Numbered from the stretch's first letter, positions 14,176-46,720 are shown. The stretch: DNA of 64,000 nt from Burkholderiales bacterium (GCA_046347635.1 JAXMFT010000005.1:513-64512); one strand, 5' to 3'. Made by a program: numbers and translations. Notes: generated by a model from the sequence alone, not told the origin.

Positions 14176-14286
14176 CGCTTCTCCGCTGCTGCTCAACGAC
14201 GATTGGAGTGCCACATCGGGCGGGCCAGCGCCAATGCGCCCACGCCGCCATGCGAGAAGGCCGCATCGCGCGCTCGTCGATCATCG

Positions 14287-16816: not shown

Positions 16817-16832
16817 AGGATCAGGCTCCGGC

Positions 16833-20697: not shown

Positions 20698-20736
20698 CGC
20701 GCGAACGATACGCGAACCGGGTGCGGCGCCGGCCGG

Positions 20737-22030: not shown

Positions 22031-22035
22031 GGGGC

Positions 22036-23121
22036 TCAGGCGAGCACGCGCTCGAAGACCGCCGCCGTCTTGCGCGCGCACTCCTCCCAGCTCAGCTCGC
22101 GGGCGCGCTCGAGGCCGCGCGCGCTGAGCCGCGCGCGGCGGTTCGCGTCGCCGAGCACGGCGGCCAGCGCCTCGCCCGCGGCCTGCTCGTCGCGCGGGTC
22201 GACGAGGACTCCGGCGTCGCCCACGACCTCGGGGATCGAGGTGAGGTTCGACGCGACCACCGCGACGCCGCTCGCCATCGCCTCGACCACCGGCATGCCG
22301 AAGCCTTCGTAGAGCGAGGGGTAGAAGAGCACCGCCGCCTCGCCGTAGCGCCGCTGCAGGTCCGCGTCGCTGACGTAGCCCTCGAAGCGCACCGCGTCGG
22401 CGACGCCGAGGCGCGCGGCGAGGGCCTCGAACTCGGCGCGCTTCTTCGCGCCCGAGAGGCCGACGAGGGCGAGGCGCGCCGCGGGGACGCGCTTGCGCGC
22501 GTGGGCGAAGCCGGCCAGGACGCCGGCGGTGTTCTTGCGCGGGGCGTCGCCGCCGAAGGCGAGGACGAGCGCGTCGTCGCGCGCGCCGGCGGGGGCGGCG
22601 GGGTCCGCGCCCCAGTGGATCACGTCGATGCGGTCGGGCCGGACGCCGAGACGGGCGACGAGGTCGCGGCGGGTGCTCTCGGACACGGCGATGATGGCGT
22701 CGGCGCGGCGCAGCGCGCTGCCGAGGCTCTGCTCGAAGCGCAGCGCGTACGCCTGCGACTGGCCGTCGTCGAACATGAGCGGGATGATGTCGTGCACGGT
22801 GACGACGAAGGGGCGGCCGACGAGCGGGGGCGCGCTGCTGCTCGAGCAGTGCAGGAGGTCGACGCGGTCGCGCGCGGCCATGAGCGGGAGCGCGATGCGC
22901 TCCCAGGTGTTCCAGCGGAAGCCGGGCAGCTCGCAGGTGCGCACGGTGAACGCGGGCGGCGGGGTCGCGGGGGCGGTTTCGCCGTACGCGTGCACGCGCC
23001 AGGCGGGGCGCAGGCGCGCGAGCGTCTGGTAGAGGCGCAGCAGCGTCTTGCCCTCGCCGCGGGCTTCCTTCTGGAGCAGGCTGCGGGCGTCTACGCCGAT
23101 CCGCATGGGGCGCTCAGGCAT
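22036..23121 (-). CDS. GT4-family glycosyltransferase
   Basis: 361-codon ORF. MRIGVDARSL..., FYPSLYEGFGMPVVEAMASGVAVVASNLTSIPEVVGDAGVLVDP (E-x7-E region). Start 23121 or 23106. Confidence 0.85.
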   Translation of the reverse strand: MPERPMRIGVDARSLLQKEARGEGKTLLRLYQTLARLRPAWRVHAYGETAPATPPPAFTVRTCELPGFRWNTWERIALPLMAARDRVDLLHCSSSSAPPLVGRPFVVTVHDIIPLMFDDGQSQAYALRFEQSLGSALRRADAIIAVSESTRRDLVARLGVRPDRIDVIHWGADPAAPAGARDDALVLAFGGDAPRKNTAGVLAGFAHARKRVPAARLALVGLSGAKKRAEFEALAARLGVADAVRFEGYVSDADLQRRYGEAAVLFYPSLYEGFGMPVVEAMASGVAVVASNLTSIPEVVGDAGVLVDPRDEQAAGEALAAVLGDANRRARLSARGLERARELSWEECARKTAAVFERVLA

Positions 23122-24652
23122 TGCGGCGGGCGCGGAGGAGCTCGAGGACCTTCGTGCGGCCTTCCCAGCCGAGGAGGATCGGCGCGGCGACCACCGCGTA
23201 GAGGGCCGTGGCCGCGGCGACGGCGACGAAGAAGGTCGGCCAGGTGCGCGCGCCGAACAGCTCCTCGAGGTAGAGGAAGGCGGGCACGATCAGAATCGCG
23301 ACCGCGCCGACGCGGGCGGCCGTCTTCGCGAGGTAGGCCGGGTAGCTCAAGTCGATCGCGCGCGCGGCGGCGAGCGGGTACGCGATCCCGCGGGCGACGA
23401 CCATCGGGAGCGCGGTGCCGAGCGCGAGGCCCGGGAGGCCCATTGCGAGCGGGCCGGCGAAGAGGACCGCGAGGAGCACCATGGCGATCGCTTCGGCCAC
23501 CGACACCTGCAGGTTGATCTTCAGGCGGCCGAGGCTGAAGAGCGTGAGCGTCGCGGTGCTGCCGGCGAGCATGAGGAGATCGCCGGCCGCGAGGATGCGC
23601 GCCACCAGGCCGGCCTCGGCGAAGTCGGGGCCGACCCAGAGTCCGATGAACGCGGGGCCGAAGGCGATCACGCCGAGGTAGAGCAGGCCGCCGACGAGGA
23701 ACACCAGCCGGGAATACCACAGGAAGACGTTCTTCAGCCCGGCCCGGTCCTCGACGCCGCCGAGCTTCATCACGGAGGGGTAGATGACGGTGCCGAGCTG
23801 CTCGAGGATGCGCTGGCAGGTCTGCACGAGCTGCAGCGCGATGCTGTAGATGCCGACCGCCGCCGGACCGATGAAGGCCATCGCGATGATTGGGCCCGAC
23901 TGGACGGCGATCGTGCTCGCGGTGCGGCTCGTAAATGCGACCGTCCCGAAGCGCCACATCTCGGCGAACCGCTCGCGCGAGACCCAGCGGCGCGCGAACC
24001 CGCTGCCGGGGAAGCACTTGCCCGCGAGGGCGACGTTGAGGACGTTGGTCACGAAGAGCGTCCCGACCATCACCCAGACCAGGCCGACGAGTCCCCCGCC
24101 CAGTTCGAGGACTAGGACCGTGAACCCCGCCCGGAGCGCGAGGCCAAGAAGCCCCACCGCGTTGGCGAGGTCGAAGCGGTCGAACGCAAGCACGAGGCTG
24201 CGGTACACCGCGCCCCAGAAAGCGAGCAGCAGGCCGAGCGTGAGGATCGGCAGCGCCGTACGGATGTCGTCGACCAGGTCGGCGGGCGTGCGCGGAAACA
24301 GCGTTCCGAACTGGAAGCCGACGACCACGGCGACGACGAGCGCGAGCAGCGCGCCACCGGTCAGGAAGGCGAGCGACGTGCTGATCACCTCGCGCACGCG
24401 ATCGGGCGCCTCGCGCGCGAGATAGAGGTTGATGAACCGGCCCACGCTGCCCCGGATGCCGAGGTCGATCAGCCCCATGTACCCCAACAGGCTGTTGAGC
24501 AGGCTCCAGACGCCGTAGGTCGGGAGTCCCAGCCCCTTGACGATGAACGGCGTGAGGAAGAACGCGACCAGGACTTCGGCCACCAGCACCGACCAGTTCG
24601 CGAGCACGTTCCGGGCGAGCACGCCCTTGCCGGCGATGAGGCGCTTCGCCAT
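23114..24652 (-). CDS. Wzx-like oligosaccharide/polysaccharide flippase (MOP superfamily)
   Basis: 512-codon ORF with ~12-14 hydrophobic helices and an N-terminal KRLIAGKGVLARNVLANWSVLVAEVLVAFFLTPFIVKGLG pattern. Confidence 0.85.
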   Translation of the reverse strand: MAKRLIAGKGVLARNVLANWSVLVAEVLVAFFLTPFIVKGLGLPTYGVWSLLNSLLGYMGLIDLGIRGSVGRFINLYLAREAPDRVREVISTSLAFLTGGALLALVVAVVVGFQFGTLFPRTPADLVDDIRTALPILTLGLLLAFWGAVYRSLVLAFDRFDLANAVGLLGLALRAGFTVLVLELGGGLVGLVWVMVGTLFVTNVLNVALAGKCFPGSGFARRWVSRERFAEMWRFGTVAFTSRTASTIAVQSGPIIAMAFIGPAAVGIYSIALQLVQTCQRILEQLGTVIYPSVMKLGGVEDRAGLKNVFLWYSRLVFLVGGLLYLGVIAFGPAFIGLWVGPDFAEAGLVARILAAGDLLMLAGSTATLTLFSLGRLKINLQVSVAEAIAMVLLAVLFAGPLAMGLPGLALGTALPMVVARGIAYPLAAARAIDLSYPAYLAKTAARVGAVAILIVPAFLYLEELFGARTWPTFFVAVAAATALYAVVAAPILLGWEGRTKVLELLRARRNA

Positions 24653-24856
24653 CAGGAGCGCGGGTGGGGCGCGTTAGGTGAACGCCGCTGAGACATGGAT
24701 AGCAACCGTAGCGGATCGGGCGCCGGGCAGGATGCCACACGGGGCTCGCGCCGGCCTGAAGCAAGCCGTTGAGAGTACGCGACCGGATGGGCGTCGCGCG
24801 AGGAAGCTCGCACGTTCTCTGACAGATTGTAAAGATCGGCGCGGAGCCGAGCGATT

Positions 24857-25696
24857 ATGATTCGGGGCCCCACGAAAGCGTTCCCTCGTCGCAACGCCCG
24901 GATGACCGCCGAGCCCCCCAAGGCCCCCGCACGACCGAAGCTGGAGTGGGACCCCGTGTCCCACTACCAGGACATCGAAATCGCGGAGCGCTACGACCGC
25001 GTGCGTTTCAGCGGGCTGTCGGGCCGCGTGTTCGATGCGCTGGAGAAGTACAACGTGCGGCGCGCTTTCGCGCGCATTCCCACGAATGCCGAGGTGCTCG
25101 ACGTCCCGTGCGGGACCGGGCGATTGGCCGAGACTCTGCTCGAACAGGGCTATCGTGTGCACGGGGCGGACATTTCGGGAGCGATGCTCGAGGTCGCGAA
25201 GCGGAAGCTCGCGCGGTTCGGTGAGCGGTTTTCAACGGTGGTCGCGGACGTCCACGACCTGGCGCGCAAACGGCCGAAGAGCTTCGATCGCGCGCTGTGC
25301 GCGCGGGTGCTGATGCACTTTCCGCTGGACGAGCAGATCCGGTTCCTGGCGCCGTCGGGCGACTGAGTCGCGGCCCGGTGGTGTTTACCCAGTCGCTCGA
25401 TACGCCGCATCAGCGGTTCCGGCGCCGGGCGAAGCAGCCGTTCAGTCCGTGGAAGCCCTGCGGGCCATCCGGTGAGCGAGCGCGAACTGGTCGAACTGGT
25501 CGAGGCCGCCGGGCTGAAGGTTGTCAGACGGCCGCGGCCAATGCCGCTGGTGACCGAAGAGATCATCGTCGTTTCGCACCCGCACAAGCAGCAGCAGTTC
25601 GGCTGTCAGGCTTCGCCAGCCTCGCCGCGCGGTGTCCACCAGGTTCATCAGTATCGTTCTTGGGTGCAAGCCGGACGGCAGCTGCTCACCTTGTAA
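24857..25696 (+). pseudogene. Class I SAM-dependent methyltransferase, frame-broken (about 3 switches)
   Basis: VLDVPCGTGRLAETLLEQGYRVHGADISGAML (motif I) in ORF 24857..25366, which ends at TGA 25364..25366. Continuation GRLSRGPVVFTQS is in a second frame, SVEALRAIR in the third, and SERELVELVEAAGLKVVRR back in the first. True 3' end uncertain. Confidence 0.6.
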
Positions 25697-26990
25697 AGGT
25701 AGCGTACAGCTCGGCGTACTGCGCCTGAACTCGTGCGAGAGTGTGGTCGCGATAGAACCAACTCACGAGCCTCGGCACCACATTGCCGAAGCGCTCGGCG
25801 ATCCGCACAAAGCGCCCCTATTGCATCGGCAAGATCTTCCACATTATCGGGCGCCACGTACCGCCCGTGAACGCCATCCTCGAAAGCCCAGCCATACCGT
25901 CGCGCGAGGCGACTACCGGTGCGCCCAGGCTCATGGCCTCAACTACCACGCGGCCGAACGCCTGTACCAAGGGATGGAACAACCGCAACGTCCGCGCTAC
26001 CGACGACATCGCCGGGGGTTTCCGCAGGAACCCGAGGAACCGCACGCGATCGGCCAGTCCCAGTTCTCTCGTCAAAGCTTCGAGTTCCGATCGCTGGGGT
26101 CCATCCCCGACTATTGCAAGTTGAAGCATTTTCGGCAGGCGCGCGAGCGAGCGGATAAGTACGTGCACTCCCTTCTCGCGCGAAAGCCGCCCGGCGACGA
26201 TCAACAGGTCGCCGTCGGAGATGTTCAGCGATGCTCGCGACGATCGTCGCTGCTCTTCGGTCGGTAGGTTCTCTGGCGCCGCGATTCCGCGAGTAGATGA
26301 CACGAATCTTCTCCGGCGGGAAACAGAAGTCTGCGGCGAGACGTCGAAGTCATTCGCATTGATCGAAACCGTAACGTCAAGCATTCTTGCCCACACGCGC
26401 CCAACAATCGCCTCGGGCAGGTGCCAGAGTCTCAGCCCCGGAATGACGCCCAGGTAACGCTTGCGGGGAACGAGCTCGTGGATCGGGCATCGCGCGCATG
26501 GAGCCGATTAGCTTTGCAGCGCTCATCAACCGCGCCACGACGGGAACAATCCACATTCGCTCGCGCCAGGAAATATTGAAGTGGACAACTCGAGCGGATA
26601 CCGCCGAAACACGCGAATAGCTTCCCTCAGGTTTCGAAGAATGCTCTTCTGAGGTGACCAGACCACCCACTCGACCCGGAATCTTCGTGCAGCGGCGATG
26701 TCCGGGAACGCGTTTCACGTAGCGGCCTCGTCTGCGAGAACGATTACGCGCGATCCGCTGTTGCGCATCGCTCCTGCCAGGTCAAGAAGCGAACGTTCGG
26801 CTCCCCGAAGGCCGCGGCCCCGAGAGGGAGGTATGCGAGGTCGAAGTCGAACCGTGACACGGAGGTGGGCTTGCGGGCTGCGCGCCGGAGAGTCGGCGAA
26901 CCGCCGATCAGAAACCGCGATGCAGACTGCTACATGTAGAACCGGACGTGTGAATATCGACCGCAACAAAGTACGGCCGGAACGTTCCTG
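25686..26990 (-). pseudogene. GT4 glycosyltransferase A, frame-broken (at least 4 switches)
   Basis: DLLIVAGRLSREKGVHVLIRSLARLPKMLQLAIVGDGPQRSELEALTRELGLADRVRFLGF. Then EAMSLGAPVVASRDGMAG | AFEDGVHGRYVAPDNVEDLADAIGALCADRRALRQCGAEARELV | FYRDHTLARVQAQYAELYATFTR* in three different frames. N-terminal LLDLAGAMRNSGSRVIVLADEA is in ORF 26715..26969. Confidence 0.6.
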
Positions 26991-26994
26991 GGTT

Positions 26995-27567
26995 TCAAGG
27001 ACCGGACATGAACGTCAATGCCGCGCGCCGCGAGTTCGTGACGCACGAATCCCAGGTCTCGCGTTCGCCCGGGCGAACACAATCGTCGAATACCAGAATG
27101 AAATCCTCTGCGGTTGGCGGAAATCGTCTCCCAGCAGCCAAGCCGGGAAAGTGCTCGACGCCGCTCGGCCCATCCACGAGCATCAGGTCGAAATCCACGG
27201 GTTCGACCGCGTCATACCACGAGCACGATTTTCCCTCGATCGTGCGAGCGCGGCATGCTCGCAGCCGGTAGTCGCACGAGGCGAGTCGTGCACGCACAGC
27301 CTCATGCCAGTCGGGTTGTCCTCGTAGCACACGTGATAGTGCCTGGTTTTGAGCGGCCGATCAATCGCGGCTTTCGCCGGACCCAAACTCGACGATCGAT
27401 CCGATCTCGTTCTCCCGCAGGATCCTGATCAGCAGGTAGAGCAGGCCGTAACTCGCGGCGGCCCCTACGGGGTAGAAGTCGTTCTTGACGCCATTGACGG
27501 CCAGGTCGCGGTCTACGAGACTGAAACAGGAGTTCTCGTTGCTGTCGGAGTACTGGATTGACGGCAT
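26995..27567 (-). pseudogene. Small class I methyltransferase-like protein, frame-broken (2 switches)
   Basis: ASYGLLYLLIRILRENEIGSIVEFGSGES (then TGA 27363..27361) | AIDRPLKTRHYHVCYEDNP (other frame) | DWHEAVRARLAS...VDFDLMLVDGPSG (first frame again, ORF 26995..27330). Confidence 0.5.
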
Positions 27568-27721
27568 GCCACCTGAGAAAGTTGGCGACAGGTGCCTTGA
27601 GTGCGCGCAGCATCAGGGTTGAGCCGGATTCGGACGAAACGATTGCATCAGCCGAACGAGCCGACTGCGCCTACAACAGAAAATCCGCGACGTGCGGCTC
27701 CGCGACCAACCCAGCGCGGCT

Positions 27722-29032
27722 CTACTCAAAAGTAAAGCAAGGCGTGCGGCGGCTCATGCTCGAACGTGTTTGCTGATCACTTGGTCGAAGGTCGCGCCCG
27801 AAGTCCACGTAGGCGCGGGCGCAAGAGTCCCAGTCGAAGCGGGCTCGAACAAGCGCCTGCGCGCGATCAGCCATCGCCTTACCGGCGTTCGGATTGGCAA
27901 GCACCGCGTTGATCGCGATCGCCAGCGCCTCTGTATCTTCGTCGACTAGCACTCCTGTTACCTCCGAAGATATCACCCTCGTCACCGGAAGTCCGGATGC
28001 GCTTTCCATCTGGCCGTAACGCGATACAGCACCCCTGCGGACATCGCTTCGAGCAGGCAGTTTGCAATGGTTTCGTACAGAGAAGGCAAGACAAACACGT
28101 CCGCAGCGGCGAGGTACGGCGCTACATCGTCTTTGTGACCCAGGAATCGAACACGTCCGAATATGTTGAGCTGACGAGCGAGGTCCTCCAGAGTGTTGCG
28201 CTCCTCGCCCTCACCAACGATGAGCAGGATCGGCGTGGCGTGGGTCGTATTACGCGGCAAACGCGTGCAGCAGGAGCGCTAGGTTCTTCACGGTTGAGAG
28301 CCGGCCAACGAATGCGACCGCCTGTGCGCCAGGCGGCCTCCGATCTCGTCCATGACCGGGCTGGGGACGCTCGCGTTGGCGTAGTGCGCGAAATCGACGC
28401 CGTTAGGAATGATGCGGATCTTTTCCTGACCGATGCCATACCACCTGACGAGTTCGTCGAGGATCAGCCGCGATTTGACGATCAGGCCATCGCTCGACCC
28501 CATGCACGACGGTTCAACTCGGTCGTCCTGGAAACGCGCAAGCCTGGAAAGGAGTCCGCGTCGTCCTGTGCCCTGATCGCCGGGCCGGGCAAGCAGGGTG
28601 AATGCCAGGGCTAGCTCGGTCGCCCGCCCGGGTGCCTTCCACCCGGCAGATTACAGGCACCCCACGCGCCACGCGCTTCATTACGAACACGAACTCCGGG
28701 TCGATACAGAAATTCAGAGCGCATCCGTGAATGACCGGTCCGATGACGCGATGGGAGAGGAAGGCTTCAACGGTACCGCGGATCGGCCACAGCCGATCCG
28801 ACAACCAGTGCCGCGGGTAGTAGGTCACACGGGTTCCGTCGATGAAGCTGGATTCGATCCGCGAGCCACCACGTTGCGCGCAAGGATCCGCACCAGCGCC
28901 CGCCTGGATCATCGAAGCCGTGATGTGTCGTGTATCTCGCGCTCCGCCGCTGCCTTTGACGATGTCGGGGTAGTGTTCGTTCTGCCAGATGATCACTTCG
29001 CCAGACACAGGCAAGCCCCGTATAACAGCCAT
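27722..29032 (-). pseudogene. GT4 glycosyltransferase B, frame-broken (at least 3 switches)
   Basis: Pieces in ORFs 28288..28503 (QEKIRIIPNGVDFAHY), 27982..28260 (ILLIVGEGEERNTLEDLARQLNIFGRVRFLGHKDDVAPYLAAADVFVLPSLYETIANCLLEAMSAG) and 27722..28009 (VTGVLVDEDTEALAIAINAVLANPNAGKAMADRAQALVRARFDWDSCARAYV). Confidence 0.6.
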
Positions 29033-29328
29033 AGGTCGGAGCCGGACCGCATGGGCAGGCGGGTGCGTGCTCCGGATTCTTCGTTCGGCGTTGCCGCGGG
29101 GTTCGGCTGGTGATCGCGCGTTGCGTGGCCGAGAATGCTATCAGCGTTGCGTCGGCGTGACAAGTGTGACGCCATACACTGCGCACGTCGATTTGACACA
29201 GTACTGTCAAGGTAGTGCCTCCGCCTTAATGCACAATGCCCACGGCCGGCACGAAGCAGATCTCCGTGTGAATGAGCCCGAATGCGCCCTGCCGGGCGCT
29301 GAGCGCAGCCGTGCGTACATCTGCCCAT

Positions 29329-30002
29329 ATGGACAAATCCTCATTCGAAGACCAATGGCGCCGACGTTTTGACGAGTTTGCTGAAACTCGCGACCTGATG
29401 CGTCGATTGCAGGCTGGTCCGAAACCGGGCCGATGCACGTGTGAGGGCGTTCGTTCGATCGTGGACCGGTCGCCCGCAAGGGGAACGCTGGCTCGATCTG
29501 GGTTGCGGGGGCAGGTACCTATACCCGGCTCCCTTCGGAGCAAACGCTCGACGTGATCGGGGTGGACTACTCACCGCGCTCATTAGAAAAGGCTAAGTCG
29601 AGGAGCAATGCCGCCATCCAATGGCCCGCAGACGCCAGATCCTTGCCGTTCGGTAACGAATCGTTCGATGGTCTGCTCTGTTTCGGTGTGACGCAGGCAC
29701 TTCCTGAAACACTCCCTGTGGTCGCTGAGGCAGCGCGCGCTACGGCCCGGTGGCGAACTTTGATCGATGCCTTGAATGGTGCGTGTCTCGCGAACGTCGC
29801 ATCCGTCCTGAAACGGCGACTCACGCATCTGCCGAGCCACCTCCGCTACGAGCGCGTCGGCCAAGTTAAACGTGCCCTGAGACAAGCAGGGTTCAGCCAA
29901 CCAAGCGTCGCTTGCCTCGCCAGCGCCGACCCGGTTGCGTATGTTGCAGAAGCTGTTCGAGTCACGAGCGAGCGAAGCGGTTCTCCGAAATTGCCCCCGT
30001 AA
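29329..30002 (+). pseudogene. Methyltransferase (type 11-like), frame-broken (at least 2 switches)
   Basis: MDKSSFEDQWRRRFDEFAE in one frame, WLDLGCGG (motif I) in another, VIGVDYSPRSLEKAKSRSNAAIQWPADARSLPFGNESFDGLLCFGVTQAL in ORF 29553..30002. Confidence 0.55.
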
Positions 30003-30219
30003 AGTCAGTGATTAGCCACTCGTTCATCGTCCGTCGCCAGCGCCCGACAGTGGACTCGCGTCGACAACCGGCCAGCAACGAGCGCGTCTCCGGTAGTGGG
30101 GATCGGCGCGGCTTCGCGTCCCGTCGTCCCGCGAGCGGACAGCGCCGGGAGTCTTATGCTATCGTCATACTCTCAGGGCATTGATCCTCTGCGCTCCGCA
30201 CCCGTCCGAGGGAAGCCAG

Positions 30220-31458
30220 ATGCACGCATTCCATAGCCTGTCGCACGTCCCCGCTGCGGCCTGCGCGGCTCTGCTCGCAGGCTGCCTTGGCGACTCTGGC
30301 TCAAGCGATGCGACCGCAGGGCAATCTGGCGCGGACGCAGGCTCCCCCCAATCACACGCCCTGGTGGCAATGCCGGGGTCCGCGTTTGCCTCGGATGCCT
30401 CAAACCTGGGGCGATGACAGCAGTAGCCGCCAAGGCTGCGCCACCCTCAAGCAACGGCGTCCCCGCAGCCGCAACCGTCGCCCTAGCACCTCTGGCCGCC
30501 GCGCGACCCACCCCCATAGACGTACAGAATCTGCCGCTGCGGACCTGGGTTGCGAGGCGATACACGACACCCAACGCACCGGCTGCGGGGATCAGCGGTC
30601 GCGGTGGCGGGTCGAAGCATGTGCGAATCGCTCAGAACCTCGACAACGGCAGGCTCTACTTCCTGGGTGGCGATTACTCGTCCAACCCGGGCGACGGGTC
30701 GTTCGTAAACGGCGTGCGGTCCTACGACTTGCCGAGCGACCGATGGATCATGGACTTCCCTACTGCGGTCGACGTGGCGAGGTCTATGCCGCACGCCCAG
30801 ATGAAGTTGGTTGGGTATGGGACAGCCGCCGCAAAGTTTTCTGGGTGTTGCCCGGATTCTTCGGGCTGAATCAGTCGGGACCCGGCGCGCCCGTGGTGCC
30901 GGCCCCCAGGTGGGCATACCTACCGCCAAGATCATGACGTACGATCCGCAGATCATCGCTGGTCTGACCCGGGCGCGGTTCGAGCCGGTCCCGCGCGGGA
31001 CCGAGCTAAGCAAGTTTGCGGTGTGGCCGACGCGTCAACGGACAGCATCTGGCGTGTTAGGTACGAAGGCTGTGGTCGCGGAACTATCAACTGCTGGCTT
31101 CGCGGGCGAGAACCGCTGGGAGGAATTCTCGGCACCAGCAGTGGACGGGACCTACATCAATAGTGCCCATCTCGACAAGGAGTACATCGCGCTTGATTCG
31201 GTGGGTCGTCAGATCTACGTCATCGACCCTAACGGCTATCGGTTATTCCGCCTAGACATGCGGACCCGGAAAGTCCAGATCTTGGCGCCTCCTCCGGATT
31301 TCCCAGCCGCCCGAACGGGTCGACGACAGGGTATGACGGTCATCGTGTGGAATAGCGTTAGCAACGTCCTTCACTACCTGCGTCAAGCGGATTCAAGGGG
31401 AGCATTTGCGCCTGCTACGTACCGGCCCGACGTAGATCGTTGGAGTTGGATCCGATGA
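30220..31458 (+). pseudogene. Lipoprotein with Kelch/beta-propeller-like repeats, frame-broken (3 switches)
   Basis: MHAFHSLSHVPAAACAALLAGC (lipobox). KHVRIAQNLDNGRLYFLGGDYSSNPGDGSFVNGVRSYDLPSDRW | EVYAARPDEVGWVWDSRRKVFWVLPGFFG | MTYDPQIIAGL...GRQIYVIDPNGYRLFRLDMRTRKVQIL... in successive frames. Confidence 0.5.
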
Positions 31459-31559
31459 GCCAGCCCGACGGGCTGGTCCGTTCCAGGTAACGCTGCAGCC
31501 TCGATGCGCTTCACAACGTACTCTTTGTCTCAGGCGGCCTCGGTCCTACAGCCGATGTC

Positions 31560-32713
31560 GACGAGCGTGTCGTGACTCACTACTTTGTTTAGCCGCTATG
31601 GCGGAAGCGGGAACGACTACCGCATCCGCCCAGATAGTGCGCAGCCTCCAACGAGACAACCCATCGTACTCGCAGCCGCCACATCGCTGCCGATGCCCGT
31701 TTCTGCTGGGCAATGGCAGGCCCTTCCCTAGGACCCCGCCGGGTACGCATACGGATTCGCCCGCGGCCATTGGGCATCGCGGATCAACAAGGCAACTTTT
31801 TTCGGAAATAGTCACAACCCGCTGGGCGACAACTCGATTCGCGCGTTCGATCCCACAACCAGGACGTGGGAGTATCTCTGACGAACAACCACGCGGTCGG
31901 CCTTCAGAACTGCGACAACTTCGCGTCCTTCTACGTCCCGAGAATGGGGGCTGCCGGCGAGCTATGGGTCGCCGGCGGCTCGGGGCTCGAAACATATCAG
32001 GCGCGTGCGAACGCCGGCGTTTCGCGCCGGCCGGTTTGACATCGCGGACGCGTCGGTGGGTCGCAACATCGACCGACAAGTTCTCGGCGTGGTCCGGGGT
32101 CGTGGCAAACGAGATCAGGTTCCTTGCGGATCCGGCGATGGCCTGGTGCGATGCGCTCGACATGTGGGTGTGTCATTCGGAGGTGCCGCCGAGGGGAATG
32201 CGAGTTGATCACCAGTACGCCATCGAGCGTAACCCGACAGGCCCTCAACCCTATCGTGCGGTCGAGTTCAGCGGGCCGCGGCCCCCTCCGAGAACGCAGG
32301 CGACGAATCTGGGGGTTTGTGACAGCAACGCCTTTTATGTCTACGGCGGCCTGTATCAGGTACCCCATCCCCCGGGGACAATGGTTATAGGGCCTGGAAT
32401 GATCTATGGCGCTTCGATCTCCGTCGCCGAGAGTGGCAACAGTTGCCGTCCGGCGGGCACCCTGCGGTAAATCAGAATGTCACTTTTGACCGCGCGAAGA
32501 ATGCAATCGTCGTTTTTATGGCTCAAAGCTGGTTCTGCAATCTGGGCGTATTACCCTGAGACCCAAACATGGGCAAACGTATCTCCGCCCAACGTGCCGG
32601 AGAACTACAACGGAACCGGCATTTACGCGCCCACCACGAACGTACACCTTTACTTCGGCGGCGCAAACAACACAATCGCGAGTTACTTGAGCGCGGCGTT
32701 TCAGCTCAGGTAA
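31560..32713 (+). pseudogene. Second Kelch/beta-propeller-like protein, heavily frame-broken; start uncertain
   Basis: GDNSIRAFDPTTRTWEYL; ELWVAGGSGLETY; SNAFYVYGGLY; NDLWRFDLRRREWQQLPSGG; IWAYYPETQTWANVSPPNVPENYNGTGIYAPTTNVHLYFGGANN. These are spread over all three plus frames. Confidence 0.4.
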
Positions 32714-34476
32714 GGCGTCCCTGCGCCGTATTTCGGCGTGTCGACTGCCATTCGACGAGTCCATGGAAATCAGGAGATCGTGAAGCTCCTCCAAGGACTT
32801 GTCCCGCGGCAACGCCAGTATTTGCCGTCGCAGTGGAGCGCGACCTCTGTTGCGCTTCTCCGTGATGGGATCATTAAAGTACCTACGGAATCCAGCAACA
32901 ACGTCGAAAGAAATGCGATATCGAGTTGTTGTAGCCGATCTAGCCTCGTTGTCCGGAGCGTAAAATTCCTTGGCGGCGATCACGAAGTAGTGTGTCCTTC
33001 AAGTCTTCGTGCCCTTCGTCGTGGGCGTTGTCCTTTGTGGGAGTGCACGCGTTGGTGATCGACGGATGATGGTCTCCAAAATGCACGAACACGGCCGGGC
33101 GTCCGGGAAAGTGCGCCTCGCGGTTGGTCTCTAGCCACGCGAACGCCTCAGCACTTTCGTTCAGTCGGGACAGGAATTCCGCGAATGGAGGCATGGATTC
33201 CGGCGGAATCTTGGTCGGATCCAAGGCACGTTCTAGTTCCGCTGTTTGCTTGGAGCCCACATGCGGCCCGTGCTGATTGATGGTCAGCGCAAGGACGAAC
33301 AAAGTGGTTGCGGTTTGAGTCGGGTCGATGGCGTTGTAGCGCGTCGAGCACGACCTTGAAATCTCCTCGTCCCGAGTACGCCAATCCCATCGCCGGGGAG
33401 GATCGAGCGCATGGCTTTCGGTCGATGAACACCTCGGAAGCCGATGCTTTCGTGGGGAACTGCCGCGCGTTGACGAAGTTGCCCGAGTTCGGATAGACGG
33501 CGAGCGTGCGATATCCGGCCGCGCAGCCGGTTCGGCAGGCTATGGAAATCTTCGTCCTTTCAGCAGGAACGGAGCGTAATAGCCGCCTGGGCCGAAGTTG
33601 AGATGCGGGATTCCTGTCAGAAGCGCCGAATTCGGCGAGCCAGGTCGCGCCACCGAACGTATGAACTCGCAGCTTCCCGATTTCGAGTGCGACGGCGAGA
33701 AGAACTCGTCCAGTCGCGCTTTGCGTTCTCGGTCCGCGATGAATGGACGAATGTCGAAAGTCGATTCCTCCAGCACGATGATGATGTCGGGCAGCGTCTG
33801 CCGCGCATGCGCTCTAATTGAAGGTGACTGCACCAGGGGCCGCGGCGGGCATCTGCCGCGCAGGCGCCAAGTGTGGTGCTGGTATTCGCCGATGCCACGT
33901 ACGAAAGTTGCGACTTTGTGGTTCCAGGAGATTAGATCCATCATCCCCATAGCGCTCAAACTCTGCGCATTCCCGGCATATGCAGCAAGGGCGACCGCGA
34001 CTCCTGTAACCGTCACCGACCATCGGTATGGTCCACGGGGCTCGAGTCGCCACACCAGATACCCGAGCCCCAGCATTGGCAAGACGAATCCCGTGACTGC
34101 CAGCAGAATTCGATGATCGTTAAGGAGCAGTTCCACAAAATTCTCACGCAGCATGTAAACCAGATCCCAGGAACAGGAATGGCACACCCATGAAGTGCAG
34201 CTTGATACGCGAGATTGCAAACACGCTGATTGGAACGACAATGCCCGATGCCAGGGAAAGAAATGGTCGCCTGGGTGGAGGACAAACCAGTGGAAGCCAA
34301 CGGCTGCGACCGATTGACGCGAGCTGGCAGTTGACTGTCTCACCTTCCAGTCTCAAGATCGCGAGCAGCATCGCCGCAACAATGCATGCGGAGGAGCGAT
34401 GAAACGATCGGCTCATCTGAGTCCGCGCTACCCAGTATTCAGCCTTTTCAGGCCAGACGGCTCCAGATCTGCGCAC
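32706..34476 (-). pseudogene. Membrane-anchored sulfatase / phosphoglycerol(ethanolamine)-transferase-like enzyme (alkaline-phosphatase superfamily), frame-broken
   Basis: Hydrophobic N-terminal pieces (ORFs 34144..34476 and 33540..34343), LPDIIIVLEESTFDIRPF, GRPAVFVHFGDHHPS (ORF 32940..33302). Probable stop TGA 32708..32706 in yet another frame. Confidence 0.5.
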
Positions 34477-34699
34477 GCAGTGCCGTACCGGCTGGAGTCA
34501 AGGCACTGTTCCTGACCATCGCAGAACAACCGGCTCTGCGTGACCGCCGTCATCAACCCGATCGGCAGCCGATAACGGGATCGAGCGCGACCATCCCTTC
34601 GACTCTACTGGTGAAGAAGGACCAGTCCGCCGAGACGCCCTTTCTCAGTCCGGCTCTGCGATTACTCAGTCCAGTCGCATGATCTGGCCGCCAGGAGTA

Positions 34700-35730
34700 G
34701 ACACAATCAAGAACGCGACCTCAATCCAATCGCATACCACCCCCATACGCGTTCGCAAGACGAGTAAACGGTGGCCGCATCATCCCGTGGATCGCGAAGA
34801 GCGGGAGCGATATGGCGCCGCAGAAAGTATCCCCCTGTCACCGTCGGCCGTTCTTGTTCCGCTCCCGCAGAGACCGAAGTCCCGACACCAGCAGTAGAGT
34901 CACGCAGACTGGCGCGAGATACCAGAGCGCCTCAACCGCCAGTTTCCCGCAACGAAGAGGCCGCCAGCGCCACGAGCGCCCACGGCGACAACTGCGGTAG
35001 TCCTCGCCGAGCCACATAGATGCCGAGGCAAAGCACCGGGAAGATGGCCAATCACCGTGAAATACAGGTTGAGCGCATGCGTCTCCAGAAACGGATTGAG
35101 CACCGCTTACAAACCAAGCCCTAGGACGCCGACTTCCGTGATTAGAACGCCGTCCCCATAGCGGGTAACGGAGGCGATTGAGTTAGGGGAAACACGGCGT
35201 AGAACTGAAACACGAACGAAAAGAACCACCACGGTCCCACCAGCAAGAGTTGCATGCCGGGTACACGTTTGCGAGCAAGCTGAGCCGAAGCAAGTAGGCC
35301 TTGAGCGTCCAGGAAAAGCCAGTCCCGCTGGCGCTACAAAAGGAGCGCATGCGCAACGACCAGACGACGAAGATGAGGTAGACCTTCGCAACCCGGTCGA
35401 GCATGAACCGCCCATCGCAAGCTGCCGAAGTTCCCGTGCGATCTGGAAGGGCTTCGTACGCGCCCACAGGAGACGAAGACCTGCACGCCGTAGTGCCCGA
35501 AGTACGAGTAGGCGGTTGGGCACCGAGCGGCTGCTCCCCGACCTGCTGCAGTAACCGTACCGTTATCTCGCGGCTGAAGTCGAACTCGTTCACCCCGGGA
35601 CTGGGGTTGACCCAGTGAAAGTAGTTGTGCAGGACGATCAGCAGGATCCCGACGCCCTTGAAGAACTGCTGGTTTCCTCTCGAATTGAGTAGAACCTGGA
35701 GCGGATCGTCCAACCTGGCCCAGGCCGCCT
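34700..35730 (-). pseudogene. Acyltransferase-3 (membrane O-acyltransferase) family remnant; boundaries approximate
   Basis: ORF 35183..36022 contains NQQFFKGVGILLIVLHNYFHWV and RFMLDRVAKVYLIFVVWSL. Downstream hydrophobic segments (e.g. LNPFLETHALNLYFTVIGH, ORF 34900..35103) are in other frames. Confidence 0.4.
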
Positions 35731-35954
35731 TCAGCAGGCTGCGTGGCCTACGCCGCCTGCTCGCAGTATGGAGGCCCCCCCAAGAAGTTGGGTATCTGGG
35801 CTCATATTGCCGCACGGCCCGTCGTTCCACCCGGATTTCCGCAGCCCTGGGAGAACCGGGAGCGCTGGCGCCCTGTTCGACATCGATTCCCGGATGCCCC
35901 CAGCAGGACAAGGGGCCGCGGGAGTGTGCGACTGGTCGTTGGTCTGTTCCAACC

Positions 35955-37924
35955 ATGATTGGCTCCGGACCGCCCACCAACCGCGCATGGCGCGAAGCGC
36001 TGCTGCCCGTACTATTCACCATTTCTGCTACCAGCGCTCAGCGTACCAGGTCTGCTGGCAGCGCGTGCTGTTCGGCGCCTTCGAGTGGACATCGAGGCCG
36101 ACGCGATCACCGTTTCGACGTTCATGCTCGGTTTGGGATGCGGCGCGCCTACAGGCGTCGCCCTGCGGATCGATTCAGCAACCTGATTATCGAGGTGTTC
36201 GTCGCGTGCGAGATCGGGATCGGACCTTCGGACTGGTCAGCCCGTGGGCGTTTTCGGCGGCTACAACCAGTTTGCCGGCCTCTCCGGTCTGGGTCGTGGT
36301 GCGCACCGTCAACTTTCTTCTCGTACTGGTGCCTGCCATGCCCTCATGGGCAGCACCCTGCCGATGCTGGTTGCACACCTCTACCAATCACTGGGCAACG
36401 TCGGTGTGTCAATCGGCCGCCTATACCAGGCGAACACCCTCGGCGCAGCGGCGCGCGCTCGGCGCGGGCGTTGTGCTCTTCATGGTGCTGACGCCTGATC
36501 GCGTGATTCAGATAGCCGTACTGGCAACTTTAAGGTCGCCCTGCTCAGCCTGCAAGGACGACCGCGTCGAGGTCTGAATGATCTGTTTCCCGCGCTTCCT
36601 GTCGTTCGCGATGGGGCTTCCTTGAGCCTGGCGCCGAGATTCTCTGGATCGACTCGGCGGCTTCGCCTACAAGGGGATACCTCAACTTCGCCTTCGTGCT
36701 GGCTACGCACCGGGGATCATGCTCGGGGCTGCCGCTTGAAAACGGTACTGTCGCGAGCCGGGGTCAACCTGCTTCACGTCAGCGGATGGATTCTCCTTCT
36801 CTTGGCCGGCTTGGCTGACTTTGCCAAGGCCCTGGATATTCGCATGGTCGTTAGCTGGAGGCTGGCTCGCAGGTTTGGTTGCGCTCGGGATCGCACTGGC
36901 GTCTACGGCATTCAAGAGCGCCGCTTCCGGATCGCCCATCATCTCGGCTTCGTCGGCCGCGGGCGTATTTGAACCTCCGTGTCCAAGGTCTACTTTGCGA
37001 ACATCGTGGGCTCGACGCTGACCTTGTCGGCTTCATCCTGATGAACAGTCGGCGGTGCAGGACTGCCTGGTCTTGATGGCGGTGATGACGCCCGCCGTAT
37101 CGGCACCCTGCCGCATGAAATACCGGATTAGCCTGGTGAAAGCGCGTTGGCCAGCGGTGGGAAGGCACGCCCTGTTCTATGCCCAACCTGCTCGTCCGTC
37201 AGATCGCCTGCCTGACCAACGATAGCCGTCCGACAATCGAGACGGTCATCGAAAACCGCTCCGGCATCATCCATACATGTTCCACGCGCGAGGCGAGATG
37301 ATCAGGTCTACGAGGCAACACATGACGGCAGTGACAATACCGACATTGCACTGGACATGAACGGGATCAGCAGAACGGTCTCGCCGCAGCATATCCGCAG
37401 CCGCGACGCGTCTCGACTGGATTGAGTGGGGGTGCGTGGTTGCGGTACTCCTGGACCGGACGCTGCGTGAGCGTCGAATGTGGAGACCGAATGGAGGCCA
37501 AGCATCGAGCCTATTCAGATCGCTCGCCAAGTCGCCTCCGGGACCTACTTGGCGATCCCCGAGTAGTCATTCACATCGACGACGGGCGACGGTGGCTGAA
37601 ACGGCATACGGACGCGCGGTACGATGTCATCGTCATGAATACCACCTTTCACTGGCGCGCTTACTCGAGCCTGTTGTTGAGTCGAGATTTCCTGGAACTG
37701 CGCGCAGCCATCTCAACGATGGCGGAGTCATTGCATTCAATGCGACAGGATCCATCGACGCATTCAAGACGGCGTCGGGTGTCTTTCCGTACGTCTACTG
37801 TTTTCGCAACTTCGTATTCGCAAGTAATCGGGATCTCACCCTCAGTTCTCATCGGTACCAAGCCGTGATCGCGATGAACTGGAGCGGGTCACCTCTCGTG
37901 GATCAGTCGAAGGCCGGTGAATGA
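35955..37924 (+). pseudogene. Fused MFS-like membrane domain / spermidine-synthase-like methyltransferase-fold protein, frame-broken (at least 5 switches)
   Basis: LLPVLFTIS | YQVCWQRVLFGAF | ITVSTFMLGLGCGA in three frames at the 5' end. DPRVVIHIDDGRRWLKRHTDARYDVIVMNTTFHWRAYSSLLLSRDFLEL (ORF 37422..37868) | HLNDGGVIAFNATGSIDAFKTASGVFPYVY (ORF 37436..37924) at the 3' end. Confidence 0.5.
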
Positions 37925-38223
37925 TAGGCTCAGCGAGCTTGCGACCGGTGTCGTTCAGTTTGATGAGAGAGCGTGAGTCGCAACGCATGGGGCGACCAGG
38001 CCATGACTATCATGGCGGCACATGATTACGGGGAGTATCGCTACGGTGTCTTCTACCAAGGGCTGTTCGTGAAAGGTTGGCCGTGATCCGCAAGAGCGCA
38101 TGACGACTCGATACGCGTGATGCCGTATAGCTAACGGTTCAAGAAGGTGTGATCGGTGCGTGCCCCGAGGCGACTCGAGGACTTGGCACCTTGATCGTAC
38201 CAACTCCTGAATCAGGATGGCTG

Positions 38224-39445
38224 TCATGTTACGTATGCATAGAACAGGTCGAAGTAGCCGAGACCGAGAAACGCACCCGAGGCCGCATACCCCCAAAGCC
38301 CGATCTGTAGTCCGCCTGCAAGCTCCTGCCCACTCCAGATGGGGCGCGTGCTGCCGCACGGTTCGGCTCTACCAGCTGGAGCGAAAAGAGCGTCACGATC
38401 AGAAGCAAAATGAAAAGACCGAGGCTCACGAATCCCATGGTCGTTGAGGAACGGGAAGTAAATGCTGTGCGCCGATCGCGCGACGTTTCCGAACTCGTCG
38501 TACGCACGGTCCGCGTAGCTCAGCCATACATCGTCCGGCAGATACTGATCCAGAACCTGCCGCCGGTCAGCGGGCGCTGCTTCGCCAGGTTCCACGACAC
38601 GCTTCCACGCCTGGATCCGCTGCATGGCTGAGCGGTCCTGGTCGCAGGTCTCGATCGCCTGGGCACAGCTCGTAGAGGGATTGCGGCGTAAACCAGTAGA
38701 GAAACCCCGCCGACACCGCCAACACGAAGACGGCCATCACCTTGCGCTTCGCCTGGAAGAGCATCAGGAATACGACGGCCGCGAGGCCAAGCATCGCGCC
38801 GCGGGAGTAGGTGAAGATCGTCGACAGCCCGGTGAGGATCGCCGCCGCGAACAGGCCGAGCCGAGCCCACTTGCGCTTCTCTTCGCGGGCGAGCGCGAAC
38901 AACACCGGCATCACCATAGTGAACGCGAGGCCGAGGCTGTTGTTGTCCTCGATGAACGAGCCCTCCGGACCGCGAACGGAGAAAACGCCTCCCGACCGCA
39001 GCGTGAAGATCCCTCCCTTCACCCCGTAGAACCCGATCGAGAGCGTGATCACCAGCAGCAGCGCGCGAATCCGCTCGCGCCCGTAGATCACGATCGTGGT
39101 CACGAACGTCATGAGCAGGATCTTCATGACCTGGTCCCACTTGACCCACGCCATCTGCGGAACCATCGCGAAGACCGACGTGATGGTGAAATCGATCGCC
39201 ATCAGCGCGAGGATCACCATCTCCGGCGTCCCCGGAATCATCTTCCGATCGCGCGACACGAGCAGCCCGAGCAGCGTCGCCACCCCCACGATCATCGCCA
39301 CCGGCATGGTCGACGCGAAGCTCCACGTCAGCCGGTGCGGGTTCATGAACCCGATCCACGACCACACCAGCACCCCCATCCACGGCCGCACGAAGCACAC
39401 CGGGATGAGCAGCGCGAACACACCAGTGAAAACGAGATCACGCAT
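38224..39445 (-). pseudogene. O-antigen-ligase-like protein of the exosortase-A-locus type; 5' two-thirds intact, 3' third broken by ~5 frame switches
   Basis: MRDLVFTGVFALLIPVCFVRPWMGVLVWSWIGFMNPH...TYSRGAMLGLAAVVFLML is intact to ~38700. Then AQAIETCDQDRSAMQRIQAWKR | SWNLAKQRPLTGGRF | ARSAHSIYFPFLNDHG | FVSLGLFILLLIVTLFSL | GLWGYAASGAFLGLGYFDLFYAYVT* alternate between frames. Confidence 0.75.
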
Positions 39446-40631
39446 GCGCGACCTCGCCCGACCGGACGAGCCCCGACATCACCGCCTCCAGCGCGCGCGC
39501 CTGCCGCGCCCAGCCGTACCGCGCCTCCACGGTCGCCCGCGCCGCCGCGGCCAGCGACTTCCGCCTGACGGGATTCTCCAGCAGCTCCACCACCGCCTCC
39601 GCGATCCCCGCCGGGTCGTCCCGCACGAGGATGTTCTCGCCCTCCCGCACCGCCAGCCCGCCGGTGCTCGCGCTCGTCGCCACCACCGCCTTCCCCATCG
39701 CCCACGCCTGCAGGATCTTGTTCTTGATCCCGGCGCCCTTGCGCAGCGGGCACACGAACACGGCCGCGCGGTCGAGATACGGCCGCACGTCGTCCACGAA
39801 CCCGGTCACCTCGACGTCCGCGCCCGCCAGCGCCGCCACCTCCGGCGCGGGGTTCTTGCCGACGATGCGGAACCGCACGCCGGGCACGCGCGCCCGGATC
39901 AGCGGCAGAACGCTGGACGCGAAGTACACCGCCGCGTCCGCGTTGGGCGGGAACGACATGTTCCCCTCGAACACCACGTCATGGTTCGACTCGCCGCCGC
40001 TCCCCGGCTTGAAGTGATCCGTGTCCACGCCGTTGTGCACCACGTGCGTCGGCGTCCCCGGCGACACCTTCGAGAAGAACGCCGCATCCACCTCCGACAC
40101 GAAGAGGCACGCGTCGGCCGGCCGAAAGTAGCGGCGCTCGAAGCGGTAGTTCATCAGCAGCCGCTTCAGCGTCCGCGCCGCCGCGCCGGGCGAGCGCGCG
40201 CGCTTCAGCTCGCGCACGTGCTCGAGCACGCCTTCGTCCACCGCGTCCATCAGCACGGGAAACTCGAACTCGGCGGGCAGGTTCACCACCATGTCCCAGC
40301 CCGAGATCCACACCAGGTCCCAGTCGGCCGCGCGCCCCTCGCGCGCGAGGAACGCCGCCACCGCGTCGCTGCGCGGGCAGAACTCGTCCAGCCGGAACGC
40401 GGCGAGGAGGCGCGACACGCCGCTCGCCGGCGCGCCCCGCGGCCGCGGAAAGGTCCGCACCGACCGGAACAGCGGCCGGATCGGCGCGGGCGCCGCGGCG
40501 CCGGGATCCGCGTAGCACAGCAGGTCGAACGCGTGCCGCGCGGCGAGCTCGCGCACGTAGTGGAAGATGCGCAGGTTCTGGCCGTTCTCCAGCGGGTAGG
40601 GAAAGCGGTCGCAGAGGACGAGGATCTTCAT
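39438..40631 (-). CDS. Glycosyltransferase (GT4-like, related to the PEP-CTERM/EpsH1-associated sugar transferases)
   Basis: 397-codon ORF. MKILVLCDRFPYPLENGQNLRIFHYVRELAARH...; CPLRKGAGIKNKILQAWAMGKAVVAT. Confidence 0.85.
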   Translation of the reverse strand: MKILVLCDRFPYPLENGQNLRIFHYVRELAARHAFDLLCYADPGAAAPAPIRPLFRSVRTFPRPRGAPASGVSRLLAAFRLDEFCPRSDAVAAFLAREGRAADWDLVWISGWDMVVNLPAEFEFPVLMDAVDEGVLEHVRELKRARSPGAAARTLKRLLMNYRFERRYFRPADACLFVSEVDAAFFSKVSPGTPTHVVHNGVDTDHFKPGSGGESNHDVVFEGNMSFPPNADAAVYFASSVLPLIRARVPGVRFRIVGKNPAPEVAALAGADVEVTGFVDDVRPYLDRAAVFVCPLRKGAGIKNKILQAWAMGKAVVATSASTGGLAVREGENILVRDDPAGIAEAVVELLENPVRRKSLAAAARATVEARYGWARQARALEAVMSGLVRSGEVAHA

Positions 40632-40764: not shown

Positions 40765-41797
40765 CTAGCCGGTCCCCGCGGCGGGGCGCGTGGTCGCGAG
40801 CTCGGCCGACAGGCGCTCGACCAGGCGCCGGTGCAGGCGGTAGGCGACGAGCGCCTTCACCGGGCTGCGCGCGATGGTCATGTCGTACGCCCACAGCGCG
40901 CTCGCCGAGTACAGCCGGGCCCACGCGAGCGGCAGCAGCGGCAGCGGCCCCATCACCTTCGTGTACCCCGCGAGGAAGCGCGCGCCGAGCGCCGCGCGCC
41001 GCGCGCGCGCGCGCCACGCGCGCGGCAGCGCGCACTGCAGCTCGAGGCTGTTCAGGAACGGCGCGACGTCCTCCAGCACCGAGGTCACGTTGCGCAGCTG
41101 CGCGTCGATCCCGGCCGCGCCCCCGTCGCCGAACAGGATGTTGTCCGGCTTGAAGTCGCCGTGGATCCAGCTCCACGGGTGGGGCGCCGCGGCCGCGTCC
41201 GCGGCGTAGCGCTCGAGGAGCGCCACGGCGCGCACGAACGCCCCGTCGCGCGCGGTCTCCAGCCGCAGCGCGTCGGTCAGCCCCGCGAGCTTGCGCTCCG
41301 CGGGCAGCGCGCCCTGCCGAGCCCGGCCCGGCCGAGTGCAGCAGCGCGAGCCACCGCCCCGCCTCCTCGACGTGGCGCTCCAGCGTCGCCGCCGCGCGCG
41401 GAAAGCGCCGCAGGTCCGCGGTCAGCGACTCGCCCTCGACCCAGCTCATCACCACGAGCGAGGCCGCCTCGTCGAGGTGCACCGGGTCGGGCCGGCCGAA
41501 CGGCGCGCGCGCGTCGCGCGCGCGGTCGCGCAGCGCGCACAGCGCGTCGAACTGGATGCGCGCGGCCTCCGGGCTCGGCGCGCGCGTCCACGGGTCCACG
41601 CACACTTTCGCGGCCCAGCGCAGCGCCCCGCCGTCGGAGACCTCGTACACGCGCGAGTTGCGCGTGCGCGCGAGCGGCGTGCAGCGCAGGCGCGCCGGGT
41701 CGACCCCGGGCCGCAGGGCGGCGGCGAGGGCGAGGAGCCGCGCGCGCTCGGCGGACGGCCCGGCGTCGGCCGTGCTCAGGTCCGGCCGCGCGGCCAT
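40765..41797 (-). CDS. Protein-kinase-like (aminoglycoside/choline kinase fold) phosphotransferase; one apparent frameshift near 41315
   Basis: ATG 41797..41795 gives MAARPDLS...RVYEVSDGGALRWAAKV...LVVMSWVEGESL...EEAGRWLALLHSAGPG. The remainder is in the ORF 40765..41235 frame: PAERKLAGLTDAL...PHPWSWIHGDFKPDNILFGDGGAAGIDAQ (HxDxxxxN catalytic loop). Confidence 0.6.
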
Positions 41798-46710: not shown

Positions 46711-46720
46711 CCCGCGCGCC

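Follow-up and report, generated by a model that had tools for sequence, protein, structure and literature searches.

The 64,000-nucleotide stretch of DNA analysed here, which we call the window, comes from a Burkholderiales bacterium (GCA_046347635.1, JAXMFT010000005.1:513-64512), and its profile matches identify it as a genuine XrtA/PEP-CTERM exopolysaccharide locus. Exosortase A (XrtA) is encoded at 54,661-56,265 on the minus strand (TIGR03109, 341 bits against a cut-off of 208, plus an EpsI domain), and the XrtA amidotransferase (TIGR03108) at 50,815-52,794 is intact with 1,070 bits. Matches above the curated cut-offs were also obtained for the TIGR03088, TIGR03087 and TIGR04063 glycosyltransferases, the TIGR03019 FemAB-family protein, the TIGR03006 deacetylase, the TIGR03015 ATPase, the TIGR03016 outer-membrane protein, the TIGR04352 HprK-related kinase A and, for its N-terminal part, the TIGR03097 ligase. 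Our subject is the lower-GC gene cassette that lies between the flippase and ligase genes of this locus, and in which a first-pass annotation had described every recognisable gene as broken in frame over positions 24,653-38,700.

The G+C content of that interval is 0.611, against 0.716 to its left (1-24,652) and 0.738 to its right (38,701-64,000); the drop in composition that had been reported is thus real, although the hand count of 57-58% was slightly low. A scan for open reading frames (ORFs) agreed with the claim that none longer than about 290 codons survives, the longest ORF overlapping the interval being 292 amino acids (aa) and the longest lying wholly within it 290 aa (31,598-32,470). 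Codon-position G+C gave a strong and stable third-position signal in the flanks (0.9-1.0), while in the interval the signal was weak and flickered among the frames.

Protein searches with stitched fragments, in which Kelch-type proteins about 60% identical by local alignment provided the lead, recovered contigs that share the layout of the window: L005 and L006 from JGI metagenomes, and L007 from a Logan assembly. Their common order is flippase (minus strand), methyltransferase (plus), further genes, GT4 glycosyltransferase (minus), methyltransferase (plus) and Kelch gene (plus), after which L005 goes on to a ligase and a TIGR03087-type GT4 (both minus), and the L007 contig ends in a fragment matching the 3' end of the ligase. 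Contig L008 has the spermidine-synthase-like gene, the third methyltransferase (MT-3) and the first GT4 (GT4-A) of the window, and in L009 a sulfatase gene is convergent with a Kelch gene, the same arrangement as in the window. The cassette genes of L005-L009 are all intact. The flank proteins of the window are 77-84% identical to those of the relatives, and comparisons of the flippase, the ligase and the TIGR03087-type GT4 among the window and those of L005, L007 and L008 that have the respective gene gave 69-84% identity, so that conserved flanks enclose a content that differs between relatives, with modules distributed as a mosaic among L005-L009. The cassettes of L005-L007 have a G+C content of 0.55-0.62, compared with 0.69-0.77 for the flanking sequence that their contigs contain. 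Given that the relatives carry intact, lower-GC, mosaic cassettes, such a cassette is the normal state of this kind of locus. A scan of species-representative genomes with the window flippase returned only proteins of 24-30% identity, and that set contains no close genome. Inside the L008 cassette a transposase fragment (Transposase_mut, 3,707-4,039) adjoins the spermidine-synthase-like gene, which hints at a route by which modules might be shuffled between cassettes.

To count the frame shifts we aligned each gene with its closest homologue using a local protein-to-DNA aligner that allows the gain or loss of 1-2 nucleotides (nt) at a fixed penalty; ordinary gapped tblastn was unsuited, as it ran through wrong frames at low identity. 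In control comparisons of intact relatives the aligner made no calls in 15 of 16 cases (46-86% identity, about 7,100 codons) and two false calls in the remaining pair, which is 40% identical, and it made none in the window's flippase, TIGR03087-type GT4 or the GT4 at 22-23 kb. As judged from these alignments, the cassette consists of ten identified genes, the ligase entering with its 3' third, and the interval 26,900-27,700, and it is listed here together with the two intact genes that border it.

23,114-24,652, minus strand: MOP/Wzx-type flippase, left flank, intact; 512-aa ORF matching the NCBIfam MOP flippase model
24,902-25,588, plus strand: S-adenosylmethionine (SAM) methyltransferase MT-1; 82% identical to the L007 methyltransferase; 2 frame shifts, 0 stops
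25,701-26,860, minus strand: GT4 glycosyltransferase A (GT4-A), Pfam Glycos_transf_1; 66% identical to the L008 GT4 (395 aa); 11 frame shifts, 0 stops
26,900-27,700, minus strand: second methyltransferase interval of the first-pass annotation; putative family only
27,785-28,999, minus strand: GT4 glycosyltransferase B (GT4-B), Pfam profile split over two frames; 71% identical to the L007 GT4 (409 aa); 11 frame shifts, 0 stops
29,332-30,043, plus strand: SAM methyltransferase MT-3; 58.5% identical to the L007 methyltransferase (244 aa); 7 frame shifts, 0 stops
30,223-32,710, plus strand: Kelch/beta-propeller protein of about 830 codons; 71% identical to P0002 (824 aa); 18 frame shifts, 1 TAG (31,729)
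32,765-34,416, minus strand: membrane-anchored sulfatase-family enzyme; 64% identical to P0128 (550 aa); 17 frame shifts, 0 stops
34,640-35,712, minus strand: acyltransferase-3 family gene; aligns to ORFs from L010-L023 at 35-42% identity; about 8-12 frame shifts, 2 stops
35,973-36,570, plus strand: small MFS-like membrane protein; 70.5% identical to P0008; 7 frame shifts, 0 stops
36,578-38,083, plus strand: spermidine-synthase-like protein (512-aa type); 64% identical to P0009 (PF01564, Spermine_synth); 22 frame shifts, 2-3 stops
38,204-39,445, minus strand: XrtA-associated O-glycosylation ligase, TIGR03097; 77% identical to the L005 ligase; 7 frame shifts, 0 stops
39,438-40,631, minus strand: TIGR03087-type GT4 glycosyltransferase, right flank, intact; profile match, no frameshift calls

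Pfam was run on frame translations in which X replaced stops, and a family was accepted if either the gene or a close intact homologue aligning along its length had a significant profile match. By this test the families named in the first-pass annotation were mostly right, with support for both GT4 enzymes, MT-1, MT-3, the Kelch protein, the sulfatase, the acyltransferase and the spermidine synthase, but not for the methyltransferase claimed at 26.9-27.7 kb, which found no Pfam match on frames, fragments or the stitched peptide (MT-2) and no convincing alignment to the L005 or L007 genes at the same position. The two Kelch-like proteins that had been proposed are a single gene, aligned with P0002, which carries Kelch Pfam matches; its start (MHAFHSLSHVPAAACAALLAGCLGDSG) aligns with the cysteine-containing, lipoprotein-like leader of the homologue. 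The supposed fusion of MFS and spermidine synthase aligns to two homologue types, a 209-aa membrane protein and a 512-aa protein.

The description of gene remnants tiling the interval in shifting frames was borne out by the Pfam profile coordinates of both GT4 genes, which are split between frames. Stitching GT4-A raised its Glycos_transf_1 match from 75 bits (profile positions 3-126) to 101 bits (3-171 of 172), and the hand-traced junctions given for this gene coincide with frameshift calls at about 25,882-25,888 and 25,746-25,755. The homologue of MT-1 carries Methyltransf_11/23/25 matches, and MT-3 also matches homologues in L006 and L008. For the acyltransferase, PF01757 was found in four of the homologous ORFs (L011, L014, L020 and L023; E = 1e-23 to 1e-26), while the hand-stitched peptide gave no significant Pfam match. 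P0128 matches PF00884 (Sulfatase) with E = 5.6e-14 and belongs to a very rare clade, with 10 matches at E <= 1e-3 among 1.84 billion representative proteins (P0128-P0130 among them); it came from the exhaustive search of representatives, a word-index protein search with the sulfatase fragment having returned the window's own fragment alone. The MFS-like protein is of the N-terminal module type of membrane-bound spermidine-synthase-like proteins, and its gene gave seven calls at nearly identical positions with five of six homologues and eight with the sixth. The intact frame of the ligase, 38,567-39,445, covers positions 1-258 of the 408 in TIGR03097, the remainder lying in the broken part. Single ORF fragments from the cassette's right half were too short to give significant Pfam matches, and a chimeric query made from fragments of six genes returned Kelch homologues alone.

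Over the 11,000 nt aligned, the calls amount to 110 frame shifts and at most six in-frame stops. This density of one frame shift per 100 nt extrapolates to about 133 for the whole 13.3-kb block, which the outermost calls delimit at 25,347 and 38,665. The acyltransferase is under-counted owing to its 35-42% identity, and about 8 of its shifts enter the total. The frame switches noticed by hand are therefore real, but "at least two dozen" was too few, and the affected interval is narrower than had been reported, the error-dense block being 25,347-38,665 with the first 445 nt of MT-1 clean. The in-frame stops include the TAG in the Kelch gene and a TGA at 36,970 in the spermidine-synthase-like gene, and some stops look like by-products of paired indels. 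Alignment to the closest relatives and reconstruction of the frames, as had been suggested, produced coherent proteins 58-82% identical to those of the relatives, except for the acyltransferase at 35-42%.

The breaks are dominated by indels, fall at random positions and come without a matching load of substitutions. Of 91 classified events, 42 are insertion-like (+1/-2) and 49 deletion-like (-1/+2), a balanced distribution, and their spacing (mean 92 nt, coefficient of variation 0.85) is near Poisson. There was no homopolymer enrichment, the longest run within 4 nt of the calls averaging 2.44 against 2.45 at random positions in the same genes (P = 0.55), whereas natural small indels cluster in homopolymer tracts (PMC10710837). 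Given that 3.25% of single substitutions in these codons generate a stop, 10 substitutions per indel would lead one to expect 36 nonsense codons and 5 per indel would give 18, compared with the six or fewer seen (P = 1e-9 and P = 1e-3, respectively).

The frame-corrected identities point in the same direction, lying within about 5 points of the values between relatives and leaving little excess divergence. For MT-1 the window is 80.5-82% identical to L005 and L007, which are 85.8% identical to each other; the corresponding values are 71-73% and 75.7% for the Kelch protein, 54.5-58.5% and 54.4% for MT-3, and 82-84% and 84% for the flippase in the flank, in which no frame shifts were called. Nonsense codons and homopolymer-biased indels in proportion to neutral divergence, as expected of genuine pseudogenes, were not found in the block.

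The edges of the block are abrupt and lie in mid-gene, within conserved genes. MT-1 is clean up to 25,346 and then has calls at 25,347 (-1) and 25,456 (+1), while the ligase is clean from 39,445 down to 38,666 and then has its seven frame shifts; under the block rate the clean 445 nt of MT-1 have P = 0.011 and the clean 780 nt of the ligase P = 3e-4, and full error density follows in both. That all seven ligase shifts should lie within the final 462 nt of the gene has a probability of 0.001. In the corrected frame, third-position G+C (GC3) is 0.81 in the error-bearing part of MT-1 and 0.89 in the ligase at 38,450-38,665, falling to 0.68 below 38,450, so that at either end the errors extend some 200 nt past the compositional boundary. 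Elsewhere in the window, a lower-GC gene (15,470-16,816) is one unbroken ORF of 448 aa. Given this gene and the overrun, composition alone is not the cause, and a boundary of read support fits the edges better than a compositional or selective one. Such a boundary could arise if short reads fail to align within one read length of a strain-specific segment, or if haplotypes converge at the edges.

The GC3 of the window ligase drops from about 0.9 (38,450-39,445) to 0.68 over its last 80 codons (38,200-38,450), and in L005 both the ligase and the neighbouring TIGR03087-type GT4 have low GC3 throughout (0.69-0.71). This suggests an old cassette recombination breakpoint inside the ligase in the lineage of the window.

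The rest of the locus is not as intact as had been described, since about five candidate frame shifts were found in the 50 kb of flanks, a density roughly 100-fold lower than in the block. Two of the flank genes concerned are the following.

40,777-41,611, minus strand: APH-like gene with one +1 frame shift at about 41,317; 2.6 kb outside the block; homologous to L005 18,214-19,053
43,922-45,749, plus strand: second asparagine-synthase-like amidotransferase, split over three frames with switches at about 44,128, 44,324 and 45,307

In the APH-like gene the tblastn halves lie in different frames, and the aligner and an independent GC3 frame model agree on the coordinate 41,317. For the amidotransferase, a paralogue of the intact XrtA enzyme encoded at 50,815-52,794, the NCBIfam and Pfam coordinates are spread over frames, and the GC3 frame model divides the coding sequence at the switch points listed, which lie in 75%-GC flank sequence. 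Two further genes on the minus strand attracted attention. A beta-helix gene at 20,694-22,081 has no in-frame stop until 19,442, while the stop that would give it a 4-nt overlap with a VanZ-like gene (start 20,697) lies in another frame, which suggests a frame shift near 20.7-20.94 kb. A nucleotidyltransferase gene at 14,193-15,434 has a complete NTP_transf_5 Pfam domain, but its third-position GC signal ends about 106 codons before the stop; its tail resembles out-of-frame sequence, and a frame shift near 14.5 kb is possible. A suspected frame shift in the deacetylase-like gene at 45,544-46,737 found no support in the alignment. The flank shifts suggest an assembly with residual indel error in general. 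As an internal control, an unbroken ORF of 10,170 nt (1,642-11,811, minus strand; 3,389 aa) shows the left flank to be essentially indel-free over 10 kb.

Taken together, these data are best explained by technical indel errors at a rate of about 1% in the sequence of an otherwise ordinary cassette for glycan modification, lower in GC and strain-variable, that lies between the flippase and the ligase of an XrtA/PEP-CTERM locus, a reading to which we assign a probability of roughly 0.87. The identity of the cassette, the gene order that it has in common with intact relatives, and the frame shifts themselves, in number, type and distribution, are direct observations; from these we infer that the indels are absent from the DNA, and that the genes are probably intact in the organism. 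The deposited sequence of the block would then carry random 1-2-nt insertions and deletions of technical origin at about 1%. If the cassette differs among co-occurring strains, its consensus may have been built from too few, unpolished or collapsed strain-mixed reads, while the conserved flanks would be well supported by reads and so nearly clean. Candidate routes include a low-depth long-read consensus over a segment present in part of the population, a long-read bridge missed by short-read polishing, and the collapse of divergent cassette haplotypes. Indels are the commonest long-read error type and pseudogenise genes, and the collapsing of divergent alleles adds indel errors (PMC12007338, PMC8445201, PMC9262707).

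The last of these routes, in which divergent cassette versions were merged into one consensus and misaligned reads added indels, is a sub-type of artefact that had already been proposed, and we regard it as a plausible one, although well short of an even chance. Strain heterogeneity is to be expected here, since the mosaic cassettes of the relatives differ at precisely this site, and the errors are random, balanced between insertion and deletion and independent of homopolymers. The edges moreover lie in the conserved MT-1 and ligase genes, where haplotypes would re-converge, and allele collapse is a documented source of indel errors and false frame shifts (PMC8445201). On the other hand, frame correction yields coherent proteins with a uniform 58-82% identity to those of the relatives (the acyltransferase 35-42%). 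A mixed-population consensus is thus fully compatible with the data and is one of two leading technical scenarios, but it is not separable from low depth or failed polishing. It had also been proposed that indel-type assembly error was confined to sequence of this composition, as would be the case if a platform or polisher failed specifically at 60% G+C within a genome of 74% G+C. The error block does coincide almost completely with the lower-GC block, and the kind of error agrees with ours; the confinement, however, does not hold, because the errors in MT-1 (25,347-25,600) and the ligase (38,450-38,665) occur at a GC3 of 0.81-0.89, like that of the clean parts of the same genes, because the lower-GC gene at 15,470-16,816 is unbroken, and because frame shifts also occur in flank genes of 74-78% G+C. 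We know of no common platform that performs worse at 60% than at 75% G+C, and we consider this explanation very unlikely.

Genuine pseudogenisation, in which the cassette or the whole exopolysaccharide locus has fallen out of use in the strain and decay of its genes is under way at the DNA level, is scarcely more credible, even though all genes of the block are affected, the TAG at 31,729 and the TGA at 36,970 are among a few stops, and frame shifts were seen in the flanking APH-like gene, the AsnB-like paralogue and the 3' end of the beta-helix gene. Recent wholesale decay, as the first-pass annotation had put it, is difficult to reconcile with 110 frame shifts against at most six stops, or with sharp mid-gene edges beside perfectly intact genes of the same pathway, the core XrtA genes giving full-length matches above threshold. 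Natural indels at about 1% should be accompanied by substitutions at roughly 10%, and identity should have dropped far more, whereas the amino-acid divergence beyond the spread of the relatives is small or absent. Insertions and deletions are also nearly equal in number and show no homopolymer bias, unlike natural indels driven by slippage (PMC10710837). Least likely of all, in our estimation, is that some 130 indels are truly chromosomal and stem from a localised, indel-specific process too recent for substitutions to have followed; an example would be an imported cassette copied by grossly error-prone synthesis during recombination or repair. The homopolymer signature of nanopore, 454 or Ion-Torrent sequencing was ruled out by the lack of homopolymer enrichment, and translational recoding because some 7-22 shifts of both signs per gene are not translatable. 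The insertion of a mobile element is unsupported, as the block edges lie inside conserved genes; tandem repeats were absent from 24-40 kb and tRNA prediction gave nothing near the block, inverted and terminal repeats not having been searched for.

Several considerations weigh against a technical origin of the breaks. The artefact is deduced from the statistics of the sequence alone, and the flank genes that are also frame-shifted could be used to support decay of the whole locus. At 3 substitutions per indel the stop-codon test loses significance (P = 0.09), and the natural indel-to-substitution ratio of about 1:10 comes from mutation-accumulation studies and not from this lineage. Given that the closest homologues are just 58-82% identical (35-42% for the acyltransferase), a few percent of extra substitutions in the lineage of the window are possible. 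As to the source of the errors, the pattern fits low-depth noise of the PacBio-CLR type. It lacks the homopolymer bias of classic nanopore consensus errors (PMC9262707), and mis-collapsed haplotypes would also fit (PMC8445201), PacBio-CLR-like noise and collapse not being separable here.

If the breaks are technical, they mean little as biology: the first-pass annotation had thought the block unusual, but relatives carry intact cassettes at the same site, and what remains is a normal variable cassette in a known kind of locus. The practical consequences concern data quality. Gene calls from this 13-kb stretch are fragments and not proteins, and one of them, the 204-aa P0001, is already in the protein collection; pseudogene counts, presence or absence in pangenomes, and family clustering would be distorted where this contig is used. 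It is in hypervariable surface-polysaccharide cassettes that strain-mixed or under-polished assemblies break down, and dense gene breakage there should be suspect by default. Taken together, how many frame shifts occur per stop, whether insertions and deletions balance, the homopolymer context and the identity to relatives after frame correction provide a reusable test for cases in which reads are unavailable.

Other features of the flanks were noted in passing. By eye, the translation of the 3,389-aa ORF contains many calcium-binding-type GGxGxD and cadherin-like repeats. Further lower-GC islands (0.63-0.69) lie at 11,800-14,200, where a 328-aa ORF (12,284-13,270) is without a family match, and at 15,400-17,400, where the 448-aa ORF at 15,470-16,816 looks, by eye, like an AAA-type ATPase and is accompanied by a small ORF (16,999-17,367). 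ARAGORN called a tRNA-Asp at 48,816-48,892 (minus strand) within the coding region of a GT4 (48,102-49,198), probably a false positive in high-GC coding sequence.

Genuine pseudogene-rich regions resemble the block in having contiguous genes that are disrupted yet recognisable, but the window differs from them in its unbiased, Poisson-like, indel-only spectrum, little excess substitution, sharp edges and intact neighbours. False pseudogenes in long-read, hybrid or collapsed assemblies are a closer parallel, with dense 1-2-nt indels, recognisable peptides, few stops and a patchy distribution along the contig (PMC12007338, PMC8445201, PMC9262707). The window departs from these in concentrating its breaks within a single block of 13.3 kb, where they are about 100 times as frequent as in the flanks, and in having no link to homopolymers, so this is not the usual genome-wide residual error of the homopolymer type. 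The cassette itself can be compared with O-antigen and capsule clusters, whose variable central regions likewise lie between conserved genes, and above all with the strain-variable cassettes of other XrtA/PEP-CTERM loci, with which it shares its position between a Wzx-type flippase and a Wzy_C/TIGR03097 ligase, the intact XrtA markers around it, its lower G+C content and its mosaic modules. Once the frames are corrected it differs from these in nothing essential, having a combination of genes of its own and a sulfatase of a very rare clade.

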